Below are positions 2,840 through 28,775 of a stretch of DNA of 32,000 nt, piece after piece. The notes under the pieces were generated by a model that was not told where the DNA came from, did no database searches, and saw nothing but the letters and a program-made list of their open reading frames with translations. The stretch is taken from positions 1,710,001 through 1,742,000 of the forward strand of contig CP060262.1 of assembly GCA_022646745.1 (NCBI GenBank), given 5' to 3'. Numbering within the stretch: the first letter of the stretch is position 1; each line of letters starts with the position of its first letter. Source of the DNA: Planctomycetales bacterium. GTDB taxonomy: Bacteria > 4484-113 > JAFGCY01. Made by a program: the position numbers and the translations under genes.

Positions 2840-3126
2840 TCAGGGATCGGGTACCTGGGACCGGGGACCAGATGAGAGACAGATGTGAGGGACCCGGGAC
2901 CAGCCTGAGGTCAGATTTCACAGTATCGCTACCTTGTTCCTGGGGTCAGGAATCCACCATTTTTCAGTGGCGTGGTTCCTGGGACCGGAGTGGAGTCAAT
3001 GGTATGAGTTTTCGTTCCGGCTCCCTGATTCCTGCTCCCTTCTTCTGGTCCCAGGTCCCGGGTCCCCGGTCCCTGATTCCCGGTCCCTACTTCTGGTCCC
3101 AGGTCCCGGGTCCCCGGTCCCTGATT
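2840..3126. repeat. ORF-less intergenic cassette bounded by GGGACCN-heptamer inverted repeats
   Basis: 2840-2871 pairs with 3093-3124 read backwards at 28 of 32 positions, plus 2 G-T pairs. The left arm is G-rich with a 7-nt period (tcaggga tcgggta cctggga ccgggga). The right arm contains a 48-nt unit x2 (3031-3078 and 3079-3126). The cassette ends 1 nt from the truB stop codon. Confidence 0.85.
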
Positions 3127-5249: not shown

Positions 5250-5633
5250 CTATTCCTCCTCGAGGCTCGAGTAGTCGTCGCGGTAGTCCGGGATTTCATT
5301 CAGCAGCTTCTCGACCTCGGCCGCATACTGCAGCGAATGGTCTTCCATGAAGCGCAGGCGCGGCACGATGCGCAGGTCAGTCTCCTCGCGCAGCCGCCCC
5401 CAGATCAGGCCGGAAGCCCGGTTGAGCGCCTCGACGCATTCCTTCGTGCGCTCACCGCCCGCAAGCGTGGAGATGCCGACCTCCGCATGCGCGAGATCGG
5501 GCGAGACGTCCACCTTGGTGATGCTGTAGCCCTCAATGCGGGGGTCCGACAGCTCACCGCTGATGATCTCGCTGATGGTTCGCAGCACGAGGGATTCAAT
5601 CCTCGCCTGGCGCTTGTGTGAAGCTCGTCCCAT
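5250..5633 (-). CDS. rbfA: ribosome-binding factor A
   Basis: 127 aa. RIESLVLRTISEIISGELSDPRI...ITKVDVSPDLAHAEV and LRIVPRLRF are typical of RbfA. Confidence 0.9.
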   Translation of the reverse strand: MGRASHKRQARIESLVLRTISEIISGELSDPRIEGYSITKVDVSPDLAHAEVGISTLAGGERTKECVEALNRASGLIWGRLREETDLRIVPRLRFMEDHSLQYAAEVEKLLNEIPDYRDDYSSLEEE

Positions 5634-6924: not shown

Positions 6925-6925
6925 A

Positions 6926-7136
6926 GGTTGCAGGGTGCAGGGAGCAGGTTGCAGATCCGGGATGAGGTATGCGGGATGTGGGATGTGGGAGCGCGTAGCG
7001 CAGGCATGCGTAAGCCTGACACAGCTGCGCATTTGCGGGAAGCGGAGGGGTGCAACTTGCTTGCACGCAATGCAATGGTAGAACGGAGGTGCGACACTGG
7101 CTGTCGCATCTCCTCATCCCCCATCCCTCATCCCGC
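6926..7136. repeat. ORF-less cassette bounded by GGGATGN-type heptamer arrays
   Basis: Nine in-phase G-rich heptamers span 6926-6988 (ggttgca gggtgca gggagca ggttgca gatccgg gatgagg tatgcgg gatgtgg gatgtgg). C-rich heptamers span 7107-7134. 6971-6990 is complementary to 7117-7136 at 17/20. The interior holds strong hairpins, for example ggaggtgcgaca-ctggc-tgtcgcatctcc at 7085-7113. Confidence 0.8.
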
Positions 7137-8532: not shown

Positions 8533-8881
8533 GGGATGGGGGATGCGGGATGGGGGATGGGGAGGGTGCGTCACGCCACGGCGTGACTTGCGCACAATGG
8601 GATGGGGGATGCGGGATGGGCAGAATGGGATGTGGGATGTGGGATGGGCAGTAGTCAGTGGGCAGGGAGACTTAGCGGCGACATGTTGTCGCCTGATCTT
8701 CCAGGAACCTATCCGCTCAATGCCGTCTGGGAGGCGTAGGGCAAGGCCATCGTGCCTTGCCCAGGATGGCGACAGCCATCCGGTTGGAAAGCACTTGCCA
8801 AAATTGCTGTCGCCTATGCCGACAGGCACAGGCTTGCGATCTTCATCTGCTCATCCCGCATCCCCCATTCCACATCCCTCA
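8533..8881. repeat. cassette bounded by GGGATGN heptamer arrays, with hairpins and a 55-nt conserved element inside
   Basis: G-rich heptamers span 8533-8566 and 8599-8667 (gggatgg gggatgc gggatgg gcagaat gggatgt gggatgt gggatgg gcagtag tcagtgg). C-rich heptamers span 8852-8878. 8533-8559 pairs with 8852-8878 at 23/27 plus 1 wobble. The last heptamer runs directly into the stop codon (tca, 8879-8881) of the PKD gene. Confidence 0.85.
8731..8785 (+). repeat. conserved 55-nt GTAG-headed double-hairpin element (REP-like), copy 1
   Basis: The sequence is gaggcGTAGggcaaggccatcgtgccttgcccaggatggcgacagccatccggtt. It has a 9-bp stem gggcaaggc/gccttgccc and a 7-bp stem ggatggc/gccatcc. It matches the reverse complement of 16742-16796 at 48 of 55 positions. 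Confidence 0.8.
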
Positions 8882-11548
8882 GCTGCTGCGGATCGCCACC
8901 CTGAGCGTGTTCACATCGCTGTCAAAGCGGCTGTAGCAGACGATGCTGTTGCCATTGGCAAAATGTGCGAGGTCCACGAACACATCTGCGCTGCCGGGCG
9001 TGAAGGTATTGGGACTTGCCGAGATGTCCTCAATGGTCCAGCTGCCCTCGTCCTGGATTGCGAAGCGCACGTGCGTGCCGCTGCCGTCGAACTCCGTGTA
9101 GGCGATGCAGGCCGTACCATCCGGCATATAAGCCAGCTGCGAAACCAGCGCGATTTCCTCGCCACTTCCTGTATCGGTGACAATGGTGATGTCCTCGTCG
9201 GCAAGCACTGTGTCATCCTCTGCCAGTTCCGTATAGCGCAGGCCGGTGTCGGTGCCGCTGATGCTCTGGTAGCTCATGCCGGTGTAGCTGCCAGGCAGGA
9301 TGTCAATGCTTCCGAACAGGCCGCTGTCAGCATTGGCAAAGGGATTTGCCCAGTTGCCACCGTCCTCACGCAGGTACAGGCCGCCAGCCAGGCTGGCCTG
9401 CATCTCGCCAGTGGTGTCGTGGTAGCGCATATGCGGGAATGTCAGGCCGGTGCCGAAGCCGTACCAGCGGGTGTAGGTCAGGTTCCCGGGGGTGCTGGCC
9501 GGGTCATACGTCAGGTCGTAATAGTTCAGGTCCTGGGCGTTGAGCGTCGGACTGTTCGAGTTCTCGACGCAGTTGCTGATGCCGAAGTGGGTGTTGACCG
9601 GGTTGTAGTCAATCCCCGTCCAGATCGCGCCGTCTCGCGCCAGCTGGGCCTCGGTCGCAATGTTGCTCAGGTAGAAGTTGTACCAGGTCGGCACTTCATT
9701 CGTGATGTTCAATGCGCTGAAGCCCACAACCGAGTTTTCGGCCGGCACGGCGGCGGCTGGGTCGATGTAGACCAGCGACACGCGTGGCAGGTTCTCCCCG
9801 TCCGCAAAGCCGATATCGGTGAATGCAGGGAAGCCCGGTGGCACGATCGCCCCCAGCAGGTCAGTATTGGTCCAGTTCGCGGGAGCCGCCAGGTCCAGGG
9901 TGCTGTCGCCGATCACGACAAAGGGCTTCAGTACATTCGGATCCAGGTTTGCATAGGCCACCATCGGGTTGCCATTGCTGGCAACGGCCACGCTCGGTGT
10001 CCAGCCACCGTCCGTGCCGGTGATTGTTGACAGGTCCACTTCCGTCCACTGGAAGGTGGGCTCGCCTGTCACCTCAAAGCTGAAGTTCAGTGTGTCATTG
10101 CCAAAGGAGTTGGATGCAGTCACGCTGCATTCGTAGATGCCGGGTGCGCCCAGCGTTTCCAGCGGGTTCTCGTCAGGGCTCGTGGCCGGCGTGGCGGCCG
10201 GGCCGAACTGCCAGTCCCAGGTGTCAACCGTGCCGGTGTAGCTCGGTGTGAAAGTGATTTCCGCCCCACTTGCACCGCTGAGCGGATCAACCGAGATGAT
10301 CACCGGCGCCTCGCCGGACTGCGTGACTTCGAAGCTGAAGTCGAACTGGTCGCTGCCGAACAGGTTCGTGGCGGTCACGCTGCAGTTGTAGGTGCCTGGC
10401 TCGCCCAGTTCCACATCCGGGCTTTCCAGCGTGCTGCTGTCCGGGTTGCCAGCGCCGTTGAATTGCCAGTCCCAGCTGTCAACGGTGCCGCTGAACTCCG
10501 GGATGAAAGTGACAATGCTGCCGCTTTCGCCGGACAGCGGGCTGACCGCCGTCACATCCGGTGCCGCGCCCGTCACCGGGCCGACTTCCAGCGTGAAGTT
10601 GAACACCGCCTCGCCGAAGCGTGACAGCGCCGTCACGCTGGCACTGTAGCTGCCCTCGGCACCGAGCGTGATCTGCGGGCTCTCCTCCGTGCTTGTGTTG
10701 GGGCTGGCGCCACCGCCGAAGTTCCACTCCCAGCTTTCCACCAGGTTGCTCACACTGGCGACGGGCTGGATCTGTGCGCCGGTCTCGCCACTGCTCGGGC
10801 TGACACTGCCCACTTCCGGCGCGCTGCGGTCCACGTCGAAGCCGACGCGGTCCAGCTGGATGCCATTGCCGTCATGCGTCAGCACGAACAGGAACACGTT
10901 GCCAAGCGGGGAAACGTAGTCGGCATAGGCCGTCAGGGTCTTCGTGTAGGTCTCACTCTCGCTGCGGTCGAGGATTTCCCAGCGGCCGCTTGCATAGTTG
11001 GCCAGCCCGACGAGGAAGCCCGGGCTGCCACCGGTGAAGTTCACGTTGCTGGTCTCGATCGTCAGCTTGTTGAAGCCGAGGTCACCGTTGACATCGGGCA
11101 GCATGTAGATCGCCCAGTTGCGCTGGCCGGCCCCGGTGAACATGCTGAGGCTGGTATTGCTGACAACCGCATTGGAGGACTTGTCGAAGGCATCCGCCCC
11201 ATCCTTCCATTCTCGGCCGATCCCGCTGGCACTGCGCGATCCCGAAAGATCCGCTTCCATGCCAGACAGGGAAGGCAGGCCGCTGTCACGTGCGACGAAC
11301 AGGCTGCTGAGTGCCGGGTCGAGTGCATTGGCGGAATCCAGCGGGATGCTCGAGAAAATGGACTGCGAGTCAGTCCGGTCCACGTTGGCTGTTCCCGCAT
11401 CCGTGCCCAGCGCCGGTCTCAGTGACTTCCCGGCCTGTACGGAGCGGTCTCCGACACTGTCCAGCCCGTCACGGGAGTGCTGGCTGCCGGAGCAACCGAT
11501 CAACACCGCTGCAATAAGCAGCATCAGGGCCCAGTTCACAATCCTCAT
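8879..11548 (-). CDS. surface lipoprotein with three PKD-like domains and a C-terminal repeat (propeller-like) region
   Basis: ATG at 11548 with a GGAGA RBS is preferred over the GTG at 11560. The signal peptide and lipobox are MRIVNWALMLLIAAVLIGC. Three ~85-aa repeats carry W(E/D)WxF(G/N)G motifs. The C-terminal blocks (NGNPMVAY..., IACIAYTEFDGSGTHVRFA, NGNSIVCYSRFDSDVNTLRVA) resemble the tail of the 1433-aa protein. Confidence 0.8.
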   Translation of the reverse strand: MRIVNWALMLLIAAVLIGCSGSQHSRDGLDSVGDRSVQAGKSLRPALGTDAGTANVDRTDSQSIFSSIPLDSANALDPALSSLFVARDSGLPSLSGMEADLSGSRSASGIGREWKDGADAFDKSSNAVVSNTSLSMFTGAGQRNWAIYMLPDVNGDLGFNKLTIETSNVNFTGGSPGFLVGLANYASGRWEILDRSESETYTKTLTAYADYVSPLGNVFLFVLTHDGNGIQLDRVGFDVDRSAPEVGSVSPSSGETGAQIQPVASVSNLVESWEWNFGGGASPNTSTEESPQITLGAEGSYSASVTALSRFGEAVFNFTLEVGPVTGAAPDVTAVSPLSGESGSIVTFIPEFSGTVDSWDWQFNGAGNPDSSTLESPDVELGEPGTYNCSVTATNLFGSDQFDFSFEVTQSGEAPVIISVDPLSGASGAEITFTPSYTGTVDTWDWQFGPAATPATSPDENPLETLGAPGIYECSVTASNSFGNDTLNFSFEVTGEPTFQWTEVDLSTITGTDGGWTPSVAVASNGNPMVAYANLDPNVLKPFVVIGDSTLDLAAPANWTNTDLLGAIVPPGFPAFTDIGFADGENLPRVSLVYIDPAAAVPAENSVVGFSALNITNEVPTWYNFYLSNIATEAQLARDGAIWTGIDYNPVNTHFGISNCVENSNSPTLNAQDLNYYDLTYDPASTPGNLTYTRWYGFGTGLTFPHMRYHDTTGEMQASLAGGLYLREDGGNWANPFANADSGLFGSIDILPGSYTGMSYQSISGTDTGLRYTELAEDDTVLADEDITIVTDTGSGEEIALVSQLAYMPDGTACIAYTEFDGSGTHVRFAIQDEGSWTIEDISASPNTFTPGSADVFVDLAHFANGNSIVCYSRFDSDVNTLRVAIRSS

Positions 11549-11600: not shown

Positions 11601-11635
11601 TCAGGGACCTGGGACCGGGGATCTGGGACCGGGGA
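11601..11635. repeat. left inverted-repeat arm (GGGACCN heptamers) of the four-helix-bundle cassette
   Basis: The arm reads tcaggga cctggga ccgggga tctggga ccgggga. 11601-11630 pairs with 12311-12340 at 26/30 plus 1 G-T. Confidence 0.85.
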
Positions 11636-11714
11636 AAGCCAATGCCTACTGGAGTATCGAGCTGGTTTGGTAATCTGTGCGGTTCTTGCGCTATTTACAA
11701 AAATGAGGAAATAA

Positions 11715-11743
11715 TTGACTTTATTGTAGTTACAGGTTACTAT
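11715..11743 (+). promoter_or_regulatory. sigma70-like promoter for the four-helix-bundle gene
   Basis: TTGACT (11715-11720), a 17-nt spacer, then TACTAT (11738-11743), in an A/T-rich patch. AGGAG lies at 11761-11765. Confidence 0.55.
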
Positions 11744-11772
11744 ACAAATGTACACACTAAAGGAGCGTGCAA

Positions 11773-12150
11773 ATGGATGCAGTTTCTTACAAGGACCTGA
11801 TTGTCTGGCAACTGGCAATGGATTTCGTTGCAGAGATCTACCGGCTCACCGGATCATTCCCGAGGGACGAAATGTACGGGATGACTTCACAGATCCGCAG
11901 GGCAGCGGTTTCCATTCCTGCCAACATCGCGGAAGGCAATGGCAGGGCGAGTCGGCGGGATTATGCCCACTTCGTGTCCATCGCCCTTGCTTCAGCCAGG
12001 GAGATTGAAACCCTGCTACTGATATCCAGGGGGCTCGGATTCATTTCCAGCGGACATGCTGAAGAGTTAGACAGCAAGCTGGATGAAATTGCGAGGATGC
12101 TGTTCAGCATGCACCGTAAACTGGCAACACCGGTAGTTGGCACAAACTGA
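11773..12150 (+). CDS. four-helix-bundle protein (23S rRNA intervening-sequence protein / DGR Avd family)
   Basis: MDAVSYKDLIVWQLAMDFVAEIYRLTGSFPRDEMYGMTSQIRRAAVSIPANIAEGNGR.S.RDY..F..IA.AS..E is the hallmark pattern of this family. ATG at 11773 is 7 nt after the AGGAG; the track start at 11767 is a GTG. Confidence 0.85.
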   Translation: MDAVSYKDLIVWQLAMDFVAEIYRLTGSFPRDEMYGMTSQIRRAAVSIPANIAEGNGRASRRDYAHFVSIALASAREIETLLLISRGLGFISSGHAEELDSKLDEIARMLFSMHRKLATPVVGTN

Positions 12151-12220
12151 TGCAGGAAGCTGGGCCGGATCGGAGTCGGTGACACTGAGCCTTGTTGTCA
12201 GACTCTCGTATGACATCTTG

Positions 12221-12340
12221 CCGGTCCCAGATCCCCGGTCCCTAGTCCCTTCTTCTGGTCCCCGGTCCCTGGTCCCTTCTTCTGGTCCCCGGTCCCTGGT
12301 CCCTTCTTCTGGTCCCCGGTCCCCGGTCCCTGGTCCCTCA
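12221..12340. repeat. right inverted-repeat arm (NGGTCCC heptamers) with a 27-nt unit x3
   Basis: The unit cccttcttctgg... recurs at 12247, 12274 and 12301 (period 27, which is three heptamers plus tcttct). The terminal 30 nt are complementary to 11601-11630. A 9-bp hairpin agtagctcc-gca-ggagctact (12341-12361) follows and overlaps the aminotransferase stop codon. Confidence 0.85.
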
Positions 12341-12356
12341 AGTAGCTCCGCAGGAG

Positions 12357-13538
12357 CTACTTCCCGACGAAGTCCTTCAGCCGGGCCATGCCCTTCTCGA
12401 TGTCCGCGTCAGGTGTTGCCAGCGAGAGGCGGAAGAAGCCCTCGCCGTACCAGCCATAGGCGCGGCCCGGGCCGACCACCAGGCCGGTCTCGTTGAGCAG
12501 GCGGCTGCACCAGTCGAAGCTGTCGGTCTCGCCCTCCGGCAGGCGGCACCACACGAAGATGCTGCCACCGGGGCGGAAGTTGACGATGCCGATCTTGTCC
12601 AGCTCGTCGCAGATCCGGTCGCGGCGCTCGCGGTAGTGGTTGCGGTTTTCCCTGAGGAAGGAATCGCAGCGCTCGTCGTCAAGGATCCGCGAGCAGGCGA
12701 TCTGGATCGCGTTGAATGTGCCGCTGTCCACATTGCTCTTGACGGTGCCGAGGCCCTCGATCAGCAAGGGGTTGCCAACCGCGAAGCCGCAGCGCCAGCC
12801 GGTCATGTTGAAGCTCTTCGAGAAGGAGTGGAACTCGATCACGCAGTCCAGCGCACCGTCGAACTCCAGCAGGCTGGCCGGCGGGTTCTCCTCATCGTAG
12901 AAGATCTCCGTGTAGGCCGCATCGGACACGAGGATGATGTCATGCTTGCGCGCGAACTGCACCACGTCGTTGAGGTACTCGCGCGGCGCCACGCGGCCGG
13001 TCGGGTTGTGCGGGAAATTGAGGTAGCGCACCTTGGCCCGGCTGATCATCTCCTTGGTCAGCTCGTCGCTCATGTTCGGCAGGAAGTCGTTGTCAGGATG
13101 CACCGGCAGGGTGGAGCTGGCACCGCCGAACATGCGGGCCACCGTGCCGAACACCGGGTACAGCGGGTCGGGCTCGATCACATGGTCGCCGGGATTGACG
13201 ATCGCGCGGCAGACGTTTGCCAGCGCTTCCTTGCTGCCGAGTGTGGTCAGCACGTTCTCCATCCCGAGCCCCTTCACCCCGAAGCGGCGCTCCATGTAGC
13301 GCAGGGCTGACTCCAGCAGCTTCGGGTGGCCCTTGTAGCTCGGATAGCGGTGGTTGCCGCTGCGCATCACTTCCTCGGCGAGGAACTCGCGCATCCACTC
13401 GGGCGGGTCGCGGTCGGGGTCGCCAATGCCCATTGACACCGTGTCGATGCCACGTGCGCGGGCCTCGTCACGGGCCTTGTCAATCTGGGCGAACAGGTAG
13501 GGCGGAAGCTTCTTCAGCCGCTCGGCAAGCTGGATCAT
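12357..13538 (-). CDS. class I/II PLP aminotransferase (LL-diaminopimelate aminotransferase-like)
   Basis: 393 aa. Contains LPPYLFAQID...GIGDPD, NHRYPSYKG, NFPHNPTG and SFSKSFNMTGWRCG (PLP lysine motif). Confidence 0.8.
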   Translation of the reverse strand: MIQLAERLKKLPPYLFAQIDKARDEARARGIDTVSMGIGDPDRDPPEWMREFLAEEVMRSGNHRYPSYKGHPKLLESALRYMERRFGVKGLGMENVLTTLGSKEALANVCRAIVNPGDHVIEPDPLYPVFGTVARMFGGASSTLPVHPDNDFLPNMSDELTKEMISRAKVRYLNFPHNPTGRVAPREYLNDVVQFARKHDIILVSDAAYTEIFYDEENPPASLLEFDGALDCVIEFHSFSKSFNMTGWRCGFAVGNPLLIEGLGTVKSNVDSGTFNAIQIACSRILDDERCDSFLRENRNHYRERRDRICDELDKIGIVNFRPGGSIFVWCRLPEGETDSFDWCSRLLNETGLVVGPGRAYGWYGEGFFRLSLATPDADIEKGMARLKDFVGK

Positions 13539-14830: not shown

Positions 14831-14916
14831 TGCGACATTATCGGCAGCATGGCGATGTTAATATAGCTGCTCGGTAATCCCTTTAATAATCATCTAACAC
14901 CCATCAGGGGAACAAT

Positions 14917-16245
14917 ATGCGTATCTTTTCTATGCTGCTGGCGGCCGTGATCGCGATCTCGGTCCTGCCCGGCATCGCACACGCGGACATCAATGCGGAA
15001 ACGAGGGCCGAGGCCATCGCCCGTATCCAGGAGCGCGATCCCAATTACGGCGGCGGGGCCCACGCCGGCGGCGGCCAGACGGCTGCTTCCATGGGCATGC
15101 ACAGGGGCGACAGTGCCTGGGAGGAGTTCTGGGTACAGGACATCGACTTCCGTCCCTTCATGGGCCGCCTGCGCACGGTGCTGCTCGAGGACCCCGGCAT
15201 GGCGTCCTGCACGGCGAAGGATGACATCATCAGCTTCCTGGACCAGATGTACCTGTTCAACATGGGCACCTCGCATGTGGACATGGCGATCACCGGTGAT
15301 GACATCATGTTCAACTGTGCCCAGACCTGCGAGGGTCTGCCGGCGGACAGTGCCCCGGCCCGCCTCGGCGCGCTGGAGAACCTGCCGCTGCAGAGCTACA
15401 GCCTGGTGGACGACGGTGACTTCATCATGTACATGGGCATCCAGCACATGCCGACGCGCCTGATGATCCAGCTTGATGAGATGCAGCGCCAGGCTGCGAT
15501 GGCGGAGGGCATGGACGGCCCGCTGTCCGAGATCTTCAGCGAGATGGACATGCAGGAGCTGGAGCAGACCATGCAGCTCATGAAGGCGATGCAGATCGAC
15601 AAGATCATCGACAGCACCCTGTCCGGTGAGGTCGGCATCGCGCTGTTCGACATGCCTTCCATCGACATGCTGGTGAACGGCGGCGACGTGCAGCCGACGG
15701 ACTTCGTGGCCGCTGTGGCGATCGGCATCAAGGATGCTGAGTACGTCAGGGAGATGATGGGCACCTACGGCAGCGAAATCGGCCTGACCCCTCGCCCCGA
15801 CAGCGGTGCCAACGGCTGGGACGTGTTCGACGTGCCGATGATGCCGGGCCTCGGCATCGTGATGAACGACAGCATGGTGGTTGCCACCACCAATGCCGAC
15901 TTCGTGCTTGGCAAGCTGATGGACGGCGGCTCGATGAGCGTCGCTCCCTGCCAGGCGCACTTCGCGCTCAACATGGCGGCGCTGAACGGCAAGGTCGTGG
16001 AGCCCGGCATGAAGATGCTGGCCGACGAGATCGCCGATGGCAATGACGAGGTCTACTGGCCGGTGGACAGCATGAAGTACCTGTGGGACGTGCCTGAGCA
16101 GGACGGCCTCGGATACATGACGATGACCGCCTACACCGGCGACGCGATGCGCCACGAAATGCGCATGAAGAAGGCCGTGTTCCAGTACCTGATGTACTAC
16201 ATCAGCACGATGGGCGCCGGCGTGATCCAGACCGAGATGCATTAG
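14917..16245 (+). CDS. secreted methionine-rich protein of unknown function
   Basis: AGGGGAA RBS. Signal peptide MRIFSMLLAAVIAISVLPGIAHA. Strong GC3 bias in this frame. A manual count gives 44 Met in 442 aa. The 511-aa minus-strand ORF over the same DNA is a His-rich shadow (CAT is the antisense of ATG). Confidence 0.8.
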   Translation: MRIFSMLLAAVIAISVLPGIAHADINAETRAEAIARIQERDPNYGGGAHAGGGQTAASMGMHRGDSAWEEFWVQDIDFRPFMGRLRTVLLEDPGMASCTAKDDIISFLDQMYLFNMGTSHVDMAITGDDIMFNCAQTCEGLPADSAPARLGALENLPLQSYSLVDDGDFIMYMGIQHMPTRLMIQLDEMQRQAAMAEGMDGPLSEIFSEMDMQELEQTMQLMKAMQIDKIIDSTLSGEVGIALFDMPSIDMLVNGGDVQPTDFVAAVAIGIKDAEYVREMMGTYGSEIGLTPRPDSGANGWDVFDVPMMPGLGIVMNDSMVVATTNADFVLGKLMDGGSMSVAPCQAHFALNMAALNGKVVEPGMKMLADEIADGNDEVYWPVDSMKYLWDVPEQDGLGYMTMTAYTGDAMRHEMRMKKAVFQYLMYYISTMGAGVIQTEMH

Positions 16246-16399
16246 GAGGCCAAGCTGTAAGCTTGGCAACGGATGCCCGGTTACAAGATGTGCGCCGGAG
16301 CTCAGTCCCGCCGGAGGCCAAGCTGTAAGCTTGGCAATTGCCAGGCAGAACTGCCTGGCCTCCACCAGGGGTGCTGCATCCCGCGAAGCAGGATGCAGC
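16245..16399 (+). repeat. array of perfect hairpin modules in the 3' region of the Met-rich gene
   Basis: A 25-nt module ggaggccaagctgtaagcttggcaa occurs at 16245-16269 and 16313-16337 (stem gccaagct/agcttggc). Further hairpins are ccaggcag-aa-ctgcctgg (16341-16358) and gctgcatcc-(9 nt)-ggatgcagc (16373-16399). Confidence 0.8.
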
Positions 16400-16430
16400 C
16401 GACAGATCTGGCAACATCGATCCAATCAAG

Positions 16431-16460
16431 GGGGAGCCTCCGGGCTCCCCATTTTTGTTT
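16431..16460 (+). terminator. rho-independent terminator
   Basis: ggggagcc-tccg-ggctcccc followed by atttttgttt. Confidence 0.7.
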
Positions 16461-16741: not shown

Positions 16742-16796
16742 AAACGGATGGCTCAAGCCTTCCTGGGCAAGGCACGGTGGCCGTGCCCTACGCCTC
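16742..16796 (-). repeat. conserved 55-nt REP-like element, copy 2 (inverted relative to copy 1)
   Basis: The reverse complement is gaggcGTAGggcacggccaccgtgccttgcccaggaaggcttgagccatccgttt, matching 8731-8785 at 48/55. It lies 42 nt beyond the RAYT stop codon. Confidence 0.8.
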
Positions 16797-16837: not shown

Positions 16838-17470
16838 TCAGACTTTCGTCTGAGCTCCGGCTAGCGCTGAAGCGGGTAGCTCCGCAGCACTGCTCCAGCG
16901 CCACTCATGCGCATGCGCGCACAGCCCGGCGCTGACCGGGTTGTTGTGGATGTACTCCACCGCGGCGTCGAAATGCTCCTCATGCTTAATGCGGCTGAGG
17001 AAGCTGCCATCCAGCCAGACCTTGCCGCTGCGTTGCATAAGCTTGTTGATCTGGCCGGCGCTGAAGCCCTTGATCGCCCCGACCAGCCGGCCCAGCGAAT
17101 AACCCCCCAGCGGCTCCATCAGGCAATGCACGTGGTTGGGCATGATCACCCAGGCATGCATCCGGTAGCGCTGCCTGTGGTAATGCAACAGGCTGTCGCG
17201 TACGATGGCAGCCAGCCGCTCCTCACGCAGCCAGCACTGCCCGAGTCCGCGGTCGAGGTCCGGCTCGACACGGTTGAACAACCGGCGACGGTCCTCGGAT
17301 TCGATCCCCTGCTGCAGCTGGTACATCCGCCTCGGCGGTACGGCATCAAACAACTGGAAGGTCACCGCCTGCAGGCCACTGCCCGCCTGCGGTGCCTGCG
17401 GGGCCGCCTGCACCGGCTTCGCCTCCTGCCTTGCCACAGCCTCAGGCTGGGCTGTCTGGATCTCGCTCAT
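16838..17470 (-). CDS. REP-associated tyrosine transposase-like protein (RAYT; IS200/IS605-type Y1 HUH enzyme)
   Basis: 210 aa. Contains the HUH motif in WVIMPNHVHCLMEP, the catalytic Tyr motif in VEYIHNNPVSAGL, and the terminal EWRWSS typical of this family. No second (TnpB) gene and no IS ends are visible. Confidence 0.85.
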   Translation of the reverse strand: MSEIQTAQPEAVARQEAKPVQAAPQAPQAGSGLQAVTFQLFDAVPPRRMYQLQQGIESEDRRRLFNRVEPDLDRGLGQCWLREERLAAIVRDSLLHYHRQRYRMHAWVIMPNHVHCLMEPLGGYSLGRLVGAIKGFSAGQINKLMQRSGKVWLDGSFLSRIKHEEHFDAAVEYIHNNPVSAGLCAHAHEWRWSSAAELPASALAGAQTKV

Positions 17471-18370: not shown

Positions 18371-18564
18371 CAGCGCGAACCGGATGCGCGAATGCGCAAC
18401 CACAGCGCCAGACCTGATTCTGTTTCCATCTCGTGCAAGCACTCGATGGTCTGCAATACAGCTCAAAGCGTAGCTTCTCGCTGATTGCAAGGTGCATCTA
18501 CGTGGGCAGCAATGTTGCTCCAGCGCGACCCGGATGCGCGAATGCGCAGCCGCAGCGCCAGACC
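18371..18564 (+). repeat. 44-nt direct repeat pair (period 150)
   Basis: cagcgcgaaccggatgcgcgaatgcgcaaccacagcgccagacc (18371-18414) and cagcgcgacccggatgcgcgaatgcgcagccgcagcgccagacc (18521-18564) match at 41/44. Each contains a tgcgc-gaat-gcgca hairpin. Confidence 0.8.
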
Positions 18565-18590
18565 GCTGAATCTTCAGATGAAGCGGAAGG

Positions 18591-19121
18591 TTAATTAAAG
18601 AACAGCGCGGCGTCCTGCCAGAGCGTGCCGGTCATGTCCTGCGTGCAGGTTACCTGGTAGGCATTGTCGAGGTCCTGCCAGCTGACGGTCCAGCTGATCG
18701 GGAAGCTCGTGCCCTCCTGGGCGTTGGCCACCGTGGCCTGCGAGAGGCTGTACACGCCGAACAGGCGCACCTCGCGGAAGGCGGCCTCGCGGCTGACGAT
18801 GCGCATATCCAGCGAGCCTGTCAGGCTGACTACGGACTGCTCGCCTTCACCGGCGCCGAAGTCATTCACGATCCCCTCGCTTGAGCTCGTCACCGGGCCG
18901 CTTTCCAGCATCCAGCCGTAGGGGCTCAGGTCGAAGCTGCGGTTGGCGAGGATCTCCGTCGCCACCTGGCGGGCCGCGGCGTCATCGCCATTGGTGCCGC
19001 CGAAGTCGTGCGGGGTGTTGCCGAGGAAGAACTGCGGGCGGTCGAAGCCCGCGCCGCCGCCGCCGCAGCCGCAGAGTGCGGCAAGAGCCAGCAGGGCGAG
19101 GATGCGAGTGATGTTCTGCAT
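18591..19121 (-). CDS. lipoprotein of unknown function
   Basis: 176 aa with signal peptide and lipobox MQNITRILALLALAALCGC. GC3 bias. It lies 47 nt downstream of the preceding lipoprotein gene, so the two are probably an operon. Confidence 0.75.
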   Translation of the reverse strand: MQNITRILALLALAALCGCGGGGAGFDRPQFFLGNTPHDFGGTNGDDAAARQVATEILANRSFDLSPYGWMLESGPVTSSSEGIVNDFGAGEGEQSVVSLTGSLDMRIVSREAAFREVRLFGVYSLSQATVANAQEGTSFPISWTVSWQDLDNAYQVTCTQDMTGTLWQDAALFFN

Positions 19122-19168
19122 GATGTAAGTTTATCAGCGCAGCCGGGCCGCTCGTTAAAACGGGACGG

Positions 19169-19921
19169 CTACTGTCCGAACAGCCTGAGATGCGCCTGGC
19201 GCAGCTGGGTGGCCGTGGCCCGGGCATCCTGGCCGGACAGGATGCTCAGCTCGTAGTAACTGGACACCGCGACAAGCTGCTGGCTGGCCGTGAAGCTGAA
19301 TGGCACGCCGCCGAGCTGGCCTTCGAATTCCCACTGCACATCCAGTGCTGACAGGCTGCGGCCGAGTAGCCAGCGCTCATGCGTCTCCGGATTGTTCTGG
19401 ATCACGGGCTGGCTGCTGCGCAGGCTGACCGCCTGGCGCAGCAGGCTTTCCGCATGGTCCGCCGAGAAGCGGCCGTGCAGGTTGACCACATCCACCTGCT
19501 GCAGGTAGTCCGGCAGATTGGGGTCCGGGCTGTAGTGGATCACATGCTCAAGGCTGCCCATGCCGGACTGCAGCAGGATCTCACCGGGCGGGGAACTCCA
19601 TGAAGCGGGCAGGGGCACTTCGTCGAAGCGCAATTGGATGTCCGCCACACCGCCCTCGAGCTGGCCGTCCGTGAAGGGCAGCAGCAGCCGCCGGCCAATG
19701 AGCTGCTCATCCAGCGCGGCTGCTATCCAGGCATTCTCGATCGGCAGGCCTTCAACCTGCTGCAGGCCGCCGAGCTCGAACCATTCCAGCTCGTCAATAT
19801 ATTTCTGGGGAGTGTTGTCATCAAGTTCGGGTACTGTCGGCGTGCTGCAGGACAGCAGCAGGCAGCCAAACATTATGGCTGCAAGGATCCCCGGCTGTCT
19901 CGCTCCCCGGATCGGCGGCAT
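19169..19921 (-). CDS. lipoprotein of unknown function
   Basis: The track ORF (to 20203) runs antisense through the tRNA and the tandem repeat. The internal ATG at 19921 gives MPPIRGARQPGILAAIMFGCLLLSCS (signal peptide and lipobox) and 250 aa. Confidence 0.7.
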   Translation of the reverse strand: MPPIRGARQPGILAAIMFGCLLLSCSTPTVPELDDNTPQKYIDELEWFELGGLQQVEGLPIENAWIAAALDEQLIGRRLLLPFTDGQLEGGVADIQLRFDEVPLPASWSSPPGEILLQSGMGSLEHVIHYSPDPNLPDYLQQVDVVNLHGRFSADHAESLLRQAVSLRSSQPVIQNNPETHERWLLGRSLSALDVQWEFEGQLGGVPFSFTASQQLVAVSSYYELSILSGQDARATATQLRQAHLRLFGQ

Positions 19922-20028: not shown

Positions 20029-20108
20029 GGGCGAGTGGCGGAATTGGCAGACGCGCCAGACTTAGGATCTGGTACTTCGGTGTGGGGGTTCGAGTCCCCC
20101 CTCGCCCA
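20029..20108 (+). tRNA. tRNA-Leu (anticodon UAG), class II with long variable arm
   Basis: Manual fold: acceptor gggcgag/ctcgccc, D arm gcg-gaattggcaga-cgc, anticodon arm ccaga-cTTAGga-tctgg, variable arm tacttcggtgt, T arm ggggg-ttcgagt-ccccc, discriminator A. CCA is not encoded. TATAAT at 20015-20020 lies just upstream. Confidence 0.88.
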
Positions 20109-20118
20109 GATCCTTTTG

Positions 20119-20386
20119 CCGTCTCGTGCGAGCACTCGACGGTCCTAGGGCGCGCAGCCACTTCGGGAGCCTGCTCCCTCAGTGCTGCAGGCACTGATTC
20201 CAATTGAGCACATTGCAGTCTCGTGCGAGCACTCGACGGTCATGGGGCGCGCAGCCACTTCGGGAGCCTGCTCCCTCAGCGCTGCAGGCACTGATTCCAA
20301 TTGAGCACATTGCCGTCTCGTGCGAGCACTCGACGGTCTTGCTTCGCGCAGCCACTTCAGGAGCCTGCTCCCTCAGCGCTGCAGGC
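20119..20386 (+). repeat. 97-bp tandem repeat, 2.8 copies, starting 10 nt after the tRNA
   Basis: Units start at 20119, 20216 and 20313 and are near-identical, differing at about nine positions between the first two copies. Each begins c(c/a)gtctcgtgcgagcactcgacggtc, followed by a 6-7-nt variable patch (ctaggg / atgggg / ttgcttc) and a gggag-cctg-ctccc hairpin. The third copy is truncated at 20386. Confidence 0.9.
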
Positions 20387-28667: not shown

Positions 28668-28775
28668 CCAGTGGTCAGTAGTCAGTGGTCAGAAGTCAGA
28701 TCGCATTCTTCCTGACCACCGACCACTGACCACCGACCACTGACCACCGACCACTGACCACCGACCACGGACCAC
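28668..28775. repeat. hairpin-forming inverted heptamer arrays (CAGTNGT / NNGACCA), right arm 14-nt unit x4
   Basis: The left arm is ccagtgg tcagtag tcagtgg tcagaag tcag (28668-28699). The loop is atcgcattcttc. The right arm is ctgaccaccgacca x4 (28712-28767) plus cggaccac. There are 26/32 Watson-Crick pairs on the plus strand. Four of the six mismatches are A-C, which become G-U on the minus strand. Confidence 0.85.

Follow-up and report, generated by a model that had tools for sequence, protein, structure and literature searches.

An intergenic four-helix-bundle gene between inverted heptamer arrays in a Planctomycetales genome, a likely relative of 23S rRNA intervening sequences

Introduction

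Intervening sequences (IVSs) within bacterial rRNA genes come with or without an open reading frame (ORF), and the origin of both kinds has been an open question since about 1990. An ORF-bearing 23S rRNA IVS in Leptospira was reportedly described by Ralph and McClelland in 1993. Here we analyze a 736-bp cassette with a similar layout at positions 11603-12338 of a 32,000-nt stretch of Planctomycetales bacterium DNA (GenBank assembly GCA_022646745.1, contig CP060262.1, positions 1,710,001 to 1,742,000 of the forward strand; hereafter the window). The cassette carries a gene of the PF05635/TIGR02436 family, called IVP below after the family name 23S_rRNA_IVP, between two inverted arrays of tandem heptamers. 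Its neighbors are a PKD-protein gene and an aminotransferase gene, and it is outside any rRNA gene.

Two bodies of earlier work bear on this locus. The helix-45 IVS of Coxiella has 2-3 tandem GACAGAT heptamers, in strain-variable number, before its S23p ORF, and it is closed by a 28-bp terminal stem in which RNase III cuts have been mapped (PMC4990558). In intergenic DNA, each Xanthomonas genome holds 70-75 convergent GGGAATC “inverted pairs” and Nostoc has over-represented GGGGAYT heptamer repeats (Rehm 2015, PMC4692102); TAACTGA heptanucleotide repeats have also been described (MacGregor 2015, PMC4679880). Such repeats and inverted pairs are unexplained in Xanthomonas, cyanobacteria and other bacteria. 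The PF05635/TIGR02436 family is itself among the larger uncharacterized bacterial protein families, and was described as functionally uncharacterized in a 2024 preprint.

Results

The window cassette opens on the left with an array of GGGACCN heptamers. An AT-rich spacer follows, in which there are a promoter-like site and a ribosome-binding site (RBS), then a 125-aa ORF and, last, a longer, inverted array of GGTCCCN heptamers:

11603..11635, + strand: left arm, 4.6 heptamers (AGGGACC TGGGACC GGGGATC TGGGACC GGGGA), G-rich strand running 5' to 3' into the cassette (repeat and inverted-repeat search)
11636..11772, + strand: AT-rich 5' spacer (GC about 41%, whole window 62%), holding the promoter-like site (function inferred) and the RBS
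11773..12150, + strand: 125-aa four-helix-bundle / 23S_rRNA_IVP gene (profile match)
12151..12220, + strand: 3' spacer, from the stop codon to the right arm (sequence)
12221..12338, + strand: right arm, some 17 GGTCCCN heptamers, reverse-complementary to the left arm (repeat and inverted-repeat search)
12232-12331, + strand: 27-nt super-unit TCCCCGGTCCCTGGTCCCTTCTTCTGG repeated 3.7 times within the right arm, 97% matches (Tandem Repeats Finder, TRF)

By TRF the left array is GGGACCG x4.6 at 11604-11635 and the right array GGTCCCT x17 at 12223-12338, so that the arms are unequal in length (33 nt left, 118 nt right). The outermost segments, 11603-11630 and 12311-12338, are 89% complementary over 28 nt. 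The left arm pairs best with 12221-12250, the block of the right array closest to the ORF (93% over 30 nt). In the minimum-free-energy fold of either strand the termini pair as one long stem. At one mismatch or fewer, the sequence GGGACCNGGGACC has 22 matches in the window, where shuffled sequence gives 0.37 ± 0.61, and all 22 fall in two intergenic places, the cassette and a hairpin at 2843-3126; each of these places has its + strand matches on the left and its - strand matches on the right. A promoter-like TTGACT-17-TACTAT lies at 11715-11743 (2 such sites found, 0.4 expected) and an AAGGAG RBS at 11760-11765, 7 nt upstream of the ATG at 11773. Going by this consensus match, the window copy may be transcribed from its own promoter. 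A preliminary description, made from the letters of this stretch, had counted 26 of 30 paired positions between 11601-11630 and 12311-12340, and a second count gives the same figure. Its period-7 arms, promoter-like site, RBS, ORF and neighbors are likewise confirmed, the 27-nt unit being present 3.7 times where it had given three, and the folding of both strands that it proposed yields a predicted terminal stem on each.

The left neighbor of the cassette is a PKD-type surface-protein gene on the minus strand that starts at about 11548, and the right neighbor is an Aminotran_1_2 (aminotransferase) gene, also on the minus strand, with its stop codon at 12357-12359. A hairpin overlapping this stop codon (12340-12362, - strand) marks the outer edge of the cassette and is not part of it. 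The hairpin is conserved at about 10803-10826 of the syntenic locus described below, with two compensatory pair changes (AGCTCC/GGAGCT versus AGAGCC/GGCTCT); it lacks a U-tract and is probably a terminator or stabilizer. A scan of the window with Rfam found no family over the arrays and no rRNA, and anti-phage defence models from PADLOC gave no match.

The window ORF clearly belongs to the IVP family. It matches PF05635 (E=1.5e-39, 134.9 bits, cut-off 33.8), TIGR02436 (E=3e-37, 127.1 bits, cut-off 24) and NF008911 (142.2 bits, cut-off 137), which bears out the four-helix-bundle assignment first made from the translation, and the protein is identical to one that NCBI lists as a “four helix bundle protein” in a Planctomycetales metagenome-assembled genome (MAG). 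Models of Avd, the accessory protein of diversity-generating retroelements (DGRs), score below their cut-offs (NF033474, 28.5 bits against 80; PF22296, 22.5 bits against 40). The QxxRxxxSxxxNxAEG motif is present, and in an alignment of 36 sequences including the window protein Q40, R43, S47, N51, A53, E54, G55 and R58 are invariant. Its solved relative is XCC0516 (2gsc; E=5e-22 over residues 8-110), by homology to which the window IVP is predicted to be a pentameric four-helix-bundle toroid.

The pairing of IVP genes with inverted heptamer arrays extends across the family. We sampled 80 loci from at least 12 phyla, including Planctomycetota, Acidobacteriota, Bacteroidota, Patescibacteria, Pseudomonadota, Bacillota, Chloroflexota, Verrucomicrobiota, Desulfobacterota, Nitrospirota, SAR324 and one Methanobacteriota MAG. 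In these loci, period-7 arrays occur at 1.11 per kb within 400 nt of the IVP gene and at 0.098 per kb elsewhere, an 11-fold difference, and periods 4-6 and 8-12 show no enrichment near IVP genes. A period-7 array is present in 43 of the 80 loci; normalized to ORF-free DNA, the densities are 8.5 and 1.5 per kb. Arrays stand on both sides of the gene in 22 loci, where the unit downstream usually reads as the reverse complement of that upstream. When flanking inverted repeats of any period are called significant above the 99th percentile of mismatched-locus controls, 53 of 81 IVP genes (65%) have them, compared to 6% in a direct-orientation control. Both results were replicated in 64 loci from IMG/VR, with period-7 densities of 1.27 versus 0.19 per kb and inverted repeats at 35/56.

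The heptamers themselves vary between loci, and complementarity of the arms is kept despite this turnover of sequence. They have a common register, A/G-G-K-K-K-H-Y (4.5 bits versus 3.6 ± 0.14 when shuffled), and a strong polarity, with G exceeding C in 34 heptamers and C exceeding G in 2. Many of the listed elements begin with AG and finish with CT, and most are about 420-650 nt long. In many the left array is 0-30 nt from the ATG; others, including the one in the window, have an AT-rich spacer of 100-140 nt. The window cassette fits this class, having period-7 arrays on both sides, a downstream array that is the reverse complement of the upstream one, and the G-rich arm 5'. Across the sample, protein identity hardly tracks heptamer identity (rho -0.13): proteins that are 78% identical can have different heptamers, and proteins with a common heptamer are only 43-67% identical.

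Arms and coding sequence overlap in some cassettes (L175, 2484-2560; L176, 1985-2060; L100, about 1440-1880). In Xanthomonas sacchari and Pseudoxanthomonas, GGGAATC heptamers supply the codons of the N-terminus, MENRES..., and in Nostoc punctiforme the stop codon lies within the right array.

A search of 50,697 GenBank phage records returned no homologue, and IMG/VR yielded only the 64 IVP loci from 2.9 million contigs; phages are therefore not an obvious vector. The IVP genes found on plasmids are mostly on cyanobacterial megaplasmids (Nostoc, Calothrix, Anabaena) and have heptamer arms. Two copies in Nostoc 7120 are part of a duplication associated with an insertion sequence (IS) and are uninformative on cassette movement.

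The cassette is tolerated as an insertion in three settings: rRNA, an essential operon and spacers. In the first example, a plasmid of Azospirillum has an IVP ORF inside a large-subunit (LSU) rRNA gene (Rfam RF02541, 2540 bits), between arms of CAGAGGA/CGGATGA and TCCGTCC/TCTGTCT. In a second example, the XCC0516-type gene of Xanthomonas campestris and X. citri is placed exactly between the stop codon of accB and the start codon of accC, with GGGAATC GGGAGTG GAGAATC GGGAATC on its left and CCCATTC CCCATTC TCGACTC CCTATTC CC on its right, directly followed by the ATG. Among Lysobacterales, the accB-accC junction is occupied by a cassette, holds an ORF-less hairpin (a decayed one in X. albilineans) or is empty:

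Occupied by a cassette: X. campestris, X. citri, X. sacchari, Pseudoxanthomonas beigongshangi
ORF-less hairpin of 129 nt, (GGGACTC)x4, loop, (GAGTCCC)x4: X. translucens
Decayed form of the X. translucens hairpin: X. albilineans
Empty, with 9-10 nt between the genes: Stenotrophomonas, Pseudoxanthomonas sp. GM95

In X. sacchari and P. beigongshangi the IVP start codon is within the left array. The X. translucens hairpin has a perfect 28-bp stem (-92 kcal/mol, z = -8.9), and the ORF-less versions line up with the occupied cassette at both their 5' and their 3' ends. This junction shows ORF-less heptamer hairpins and IVP cassettes to be states of one element. Separately, X. campestris has, downstream of accC, a 97-nt tandem repeat of 4.9 copies with 90% matches (L103, 4858-5327).

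Close relatives of the window locus were compared. Ten same-species metagenome contigs carry the same cassette and differ only in the copy number of the 27-nt unit, two of them having one unit fewer; the array therefore slips in natural populations. In the sole related genome found, GCA_041395205.1 (locus L011), synteny is complete and an orthologue with GGGACCN arms occupies the same slot with the same outer junctions. Its left arm has grown to 145 nt (a 35-nt unit x4) and its right arm is interrupted by a nested repeat of about 160 nt. A scan of metagenomes with the aminotransferase for an empty form of the slot found only two loci, 66% identical and non-syntenic. The comparison of occupied and empty sites put forward in the preliminary description is positive for the homologous accB-accC cassette; the window slot is occupied in its one related genome. 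A paralogue in the window genome, P0021 (57% identical), is flanked by inverted AGCAGAG / CTCTGCT arrays; together with the 65% of sampled homologues that have flanking inverted repeats, mostly heptamer arrays, it upholds the earlier tie between this gene family and such arms.

Locus L011 also has a dispersed repeat of about 100 nt at 5266-5368 and 10638-10739 (91% identical), with GTCCCTG heptamers at its end and one of the copies nested within the orthologous cassette's right arm. This suggests that further small elements ride on heptamer arrays.

The IVP gene of the window (11773-12147) and its L011 orthologue (10001-10375) encode proteins that are 79% identical and have a ratio of nonsynonymous to synonymous divergence (dN/dS) of 0.095, because of which we consider the protein to be under purifying selection. 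Its dS of 1.59 is fourfold the 0.38 of the neighboring aminotransferase, although one syntenic block holds both genes, and its GC content at third codon positions is 0.61 versus 0.91. The proteins neighboring the cassette are 94% and 88% identical between the two genomes. The low dN/dS and high dS together indicate that the protein is constrained while the cassette evolves fast; alternatively, the high dS could reflect weak codon bias or replacement of the cassette.

The window holds four further inverted heptamer hairpins, overlooked in the preliminary description and all without an ORF:

2843..3126, no strand assigned: ORF-less hairpin with GGGACCN / GGTCCCN arms, loop of about 150 nt (TRF, repeat comparison)
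6925..7134, no strand assigned: ORF-less hairpin, AGGKTGC/GGGATGN ... CATCCCN (TRF)
8533..8878, no strand assigned: ORF-less hairpin, GGGATGN ... CATCCCN, loop of about 200 nt with a hairpin like a repetitive extragenic palindrome (REP) (TRF)
28669..28775, no strand assigned: ORF-less hairpin, AGTGGTC ... GACCACT, loop of 12 nt, fold z-score -4.8 (TRF, folding)

The hairpin at 2843-3126 and the cassette have an irregular CCCTTCTTCTGGTCCC unit in common. All four have the G-rich arm on the left, and an inverted repeat so built has its G-rich arm 5' on both strands. The slot between FTCD and TruB that holds the GGGACCN hairpin in the window (2843-3126) has in L011 (1053-1427) a hairpin of a 36-nt unit built from other heptamers (GAGGGTG TAGGAGC TGGGATA ...); as judged from these two loci, the arm sequence is turned over in this slot and the hairpin kept.

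Several other repeats were seen along the way. The REP-like hairpin GGCAAGGCACGGTGGCCGTGCC... at 16742-16796 has an inverted, 87%-identical copy at 8731-8785, within the loop of the ORF-less hairpin 8533-8878, and adjoins an IS200-like Y1 transposase gene (PF01797; 31-36 bits, cut-off 23) at 16838-17470 (- strand). The L011 counterpart of this gene, at 18406-19481, has along one flank some 240 nt of CGCATCA/CGCTTCA heptamer arrays in the same orientation. In the window region 20029-20386, a 97-nt tandem repeat (x2.8, 94% matches) starts 8 nt past a tRNA gene (20029-20108), and a related 71-nt repeat (x3.9) is found at 20056-20334 of L011; the copies are near-identical, and we therefore rejected a clustered regularly interspaced short palindromic repeat (CRISPR) array in favor of a tandem repeat. 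Lastly, in L011 the spacer downstream of a 442-aa gene (14837-15492) has an 8-nt array, CCGAGTCA x16 (15090-15217), between blocks of a 52-nt hairpin-rich repeat, only fragments of which region are present in the window (16245-16460).

Discussion

We propose, at a probability of about 0.6, that 11603-12338 of the window is a free-standing, self-promoted selfish cassette of the IVS type, whose arms would form a stem of the RNase III type. The best reading of the sequences is that it is the same type of element as the ORF-bearing 23S rRNA IVSs, in an intergenic place, and that it represents a widespread and largely undescribed class in which an IVP gene is bracketed by inverted heptamers of AG-NNNNN register with the G-rich arm always 5'. 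On this proposal both arms would belong to the element, their complementarity being kept while sequence and copy number drift by replication slippage. A read-through transcript in either direction would fold the arms into a stem of at least 30 bp, the type that RNase III cuts in rRNA IVSs, so that the insertion would be removed or insulated at the RNA level and its neighbors insulated from it. Such removal or insulation would be the reason that insertion is tolerated in rRNA, in operons such as accB-accC and in spacers. For the window cassette we infer this processing from the predicted stem and the rRNA precedents. Loss of the ORF would leave ORF-less heptamer hairpins, such as the four in the window, as deletion derivatives. 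The IVP protein most likely acts on nucleic acid and may help to maintain or spread the cassette, without reading the heptamer sequence. Precise excision through slippage during replication is known to be favored by long inverted repeats, Tn5 and Tn10 being examples.

A number of observations weigh against this proposal. The predicted promoter (11715-11743) is inward of the left arm, and the gene's own transcript would hold the right arm only. Across the arms, G:T and A:C mismatches are equally frequent (72 each), giving no RNA-specific signal, and the complementarity could therefore be kept at the DNA level alone. About one third of the sampled IVP genes have no significant flanking repeat. 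No movement was observed at the window locus, in one related genome and 10 same-species contigs; no consistent target-site duplication was seen in 35 elements; and no recombinase was found for the cassette. A six-frame search with hidden Markov models detected no IVP remnants at E<1 in the four ORF-less hairpins.

The hairpin could instead have come first, which we hold to be unlikely though worth weighing. In that case the host would generate the arrays by slippage, as intergenic palindromes of simple repeats serving as insulators or terminators, and IVP genes would land or stay in their loops, making the arms a target and not part of the element. The 4:1 ratio of ORF-less hairpins to the occupied one in the window would fit, as would the prevalence of hairpins in IVP-bearing loci (they occur in 9% of the other ORF-free regions, and short-spaced pairs are many), the 70-75 inverted pairs of each Xanthomonas genome (PMC4692102), the different heptamers of the window and L011 in the same slot, and a heptamer sequence nearly uncoupled from IVP phylogeny. 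However, rRNA IVSs bring their own heptamer arms and not rRNA sequence, and from Pseudoxanthomonas to Xanthomonas the arms and the ORF are co-inherited, with the start codon in the left array. The truly empty accB-accC sites of 9-10 nt are without a hairpin, and the coinciding ends of the ORF-less and occupied versions also speak for the arms being part of the element. We give little credence to a transposon akin to MITEs (miniature inverted-repeat transposable elements), non-autonomous and mobilized in trans by a host transposase such as the IS200-like Y1 enzyme, similar to REP-associated tyrosine transposases (RAYT), encoded 5 kb away, with the IVP gene as a passenger. Small size, terminal inverted repeats and ORF-less copies with related arms in the window would all suit such an element, and Y1_Tnp genes are present in the window (16838-17470) and in L011, there adjoining long heptamer arrays. 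But those arrays are direct and not inverted, the arms differ between copies in one genome, so that a single transposase could not recognize them, and all phyla have the same gene family as cargo, unexpected for a passenger. A possible 3-bp TCA/TCA flank in the window would also suit a transposon; L011 has TCA/TGA, and the 35 elements show no consistent duplication.

The preliminary description had speculated that the protein binds the heptamer arms. Developed fully, the IVP would be a sequence-specific binder of its own arrays, an autoregulator or a partition-like protein, and the ORF-less arrays would be its regulon. A pentameric toroid with an invariant QxxRxxxSxxxNxAEG motif and periodic sites adjoining its gene invites this explanation, and the correlation of protein and heptamer identity is weak and not zero; yet the 78%-identical proteins with different heptamers, the 43-67% identity among proteins with the same heptamer, and at least three heptamer types in the window versus two IVP genes known for the genome disfavor sequence reading and make the explanation improbable. 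The remaining candidate, an orphan Avd accessory gene of a DGR, is effectively refuted. The “Avd / 23S-IVS” label of the preliminary description stands in its 23S-IVS part and was overstated in its Avd part: the homology to Avd models is remote and scores far below both curated cut-offs, the 50,697 phage records hold no match, and no reverse transcriptase (RVT) family occurs among the genes called within 10 kb on either side of the orthologue in the syntenic locus, where template and variable repeats were not searched for.

A broader and decidedly speculative extension, which we think rather improbable, is that IVP cassettes are a pan-prokaryotic mobile class and the source of intergenic heptamer hairpins, with the Avd-like pentamer driving spread or the synthesis of heptamer-register repeats, together with, for example, a polymerase or reverse transcriptase of the host. 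If true, this would amount to a new mobility mechanism without a conventional recombinase and to the origin of rRNA intervening sequences. With the IVS-type cassette that we favor, three loose ends become one object: the PF05635/TIGR02436 family, the origin of rRNA IVSs and the excess of intergenic heptamers. No paper linking the PF05635 family to inverted heptamer arrays or “inverted pairs” was found in the searchable literature, where both the association and the link appear to be undescribed. Xanthomonas offers a testable system, since accB-IVP-accC combines a solved structure and published GGGAATC repeats in one cassette within an essential operon. For genome annotation, heptamer arrays beside IVP genes, and IVP genes in cas operons or rRNA, are to be read as insertions and not as functional partners.

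Compared with known systems, the closest match is to the ORF-bearing 23S rRNA IVSs. Like the cassette, these have a PF05635 ORF, terminal inverted repeats that form a long stem, variable-number tandem heptamers near the ORF and a size of about 430-750 nt. The layout is identical to that of the Azospirillum LSU rRNA IVS (verified here) and the Coxiella IVS (as described), in agreement with the initial view of the cassette as a free-standing relative of such elements. In contrast to them, the window cassette is outside an rRNA gene, has much longer and asymmetric arms (33 versus 118 nt) and has a promoter-like site and a strong RBS, where the Coxiella ORF is thought to be untranslated; RNase III excision, shown for the Coxiella IVS, is predicted for the window cassette. 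MITEs and REP elements, including bacterial interspersed mosaic elements (BIMEs), are likewise small and intergenic, lie between inverted repeats and have ORF-less copies dispersed through the genome. The cassette differs from these in heptamer-array arms that vary between copies, with no target-site duplication found and no cognate transposase known. DGR Avd has the four-helix-bundle fold and the pentamer that are predicted for the window protein, and a remote sequence similarity to it; the window gene differs in its sub-cut-off scores and in not being phage-borne. Finally, the intergenic heptanucleotide repeats of Xanthomonas, of Nostoc, of the cyanobacterial short tandemly repeated repetitive (STRR) class and of the TAACTGA type resemble the cassette arms in being intergenic and G-rich with a period of 7, in forming convergent pairs with the G-rich strand inward, and in keeping their position while varying in length among relatives. 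They have been treated as simple sequence repeats or G-quadruplex motifs, with no mention of IVP genes or rRNA IVSs found (PMC4692102, PMC4679880), and it is precisely these published GGGAATC repeats that flank the Xanthomonas IVP gene.

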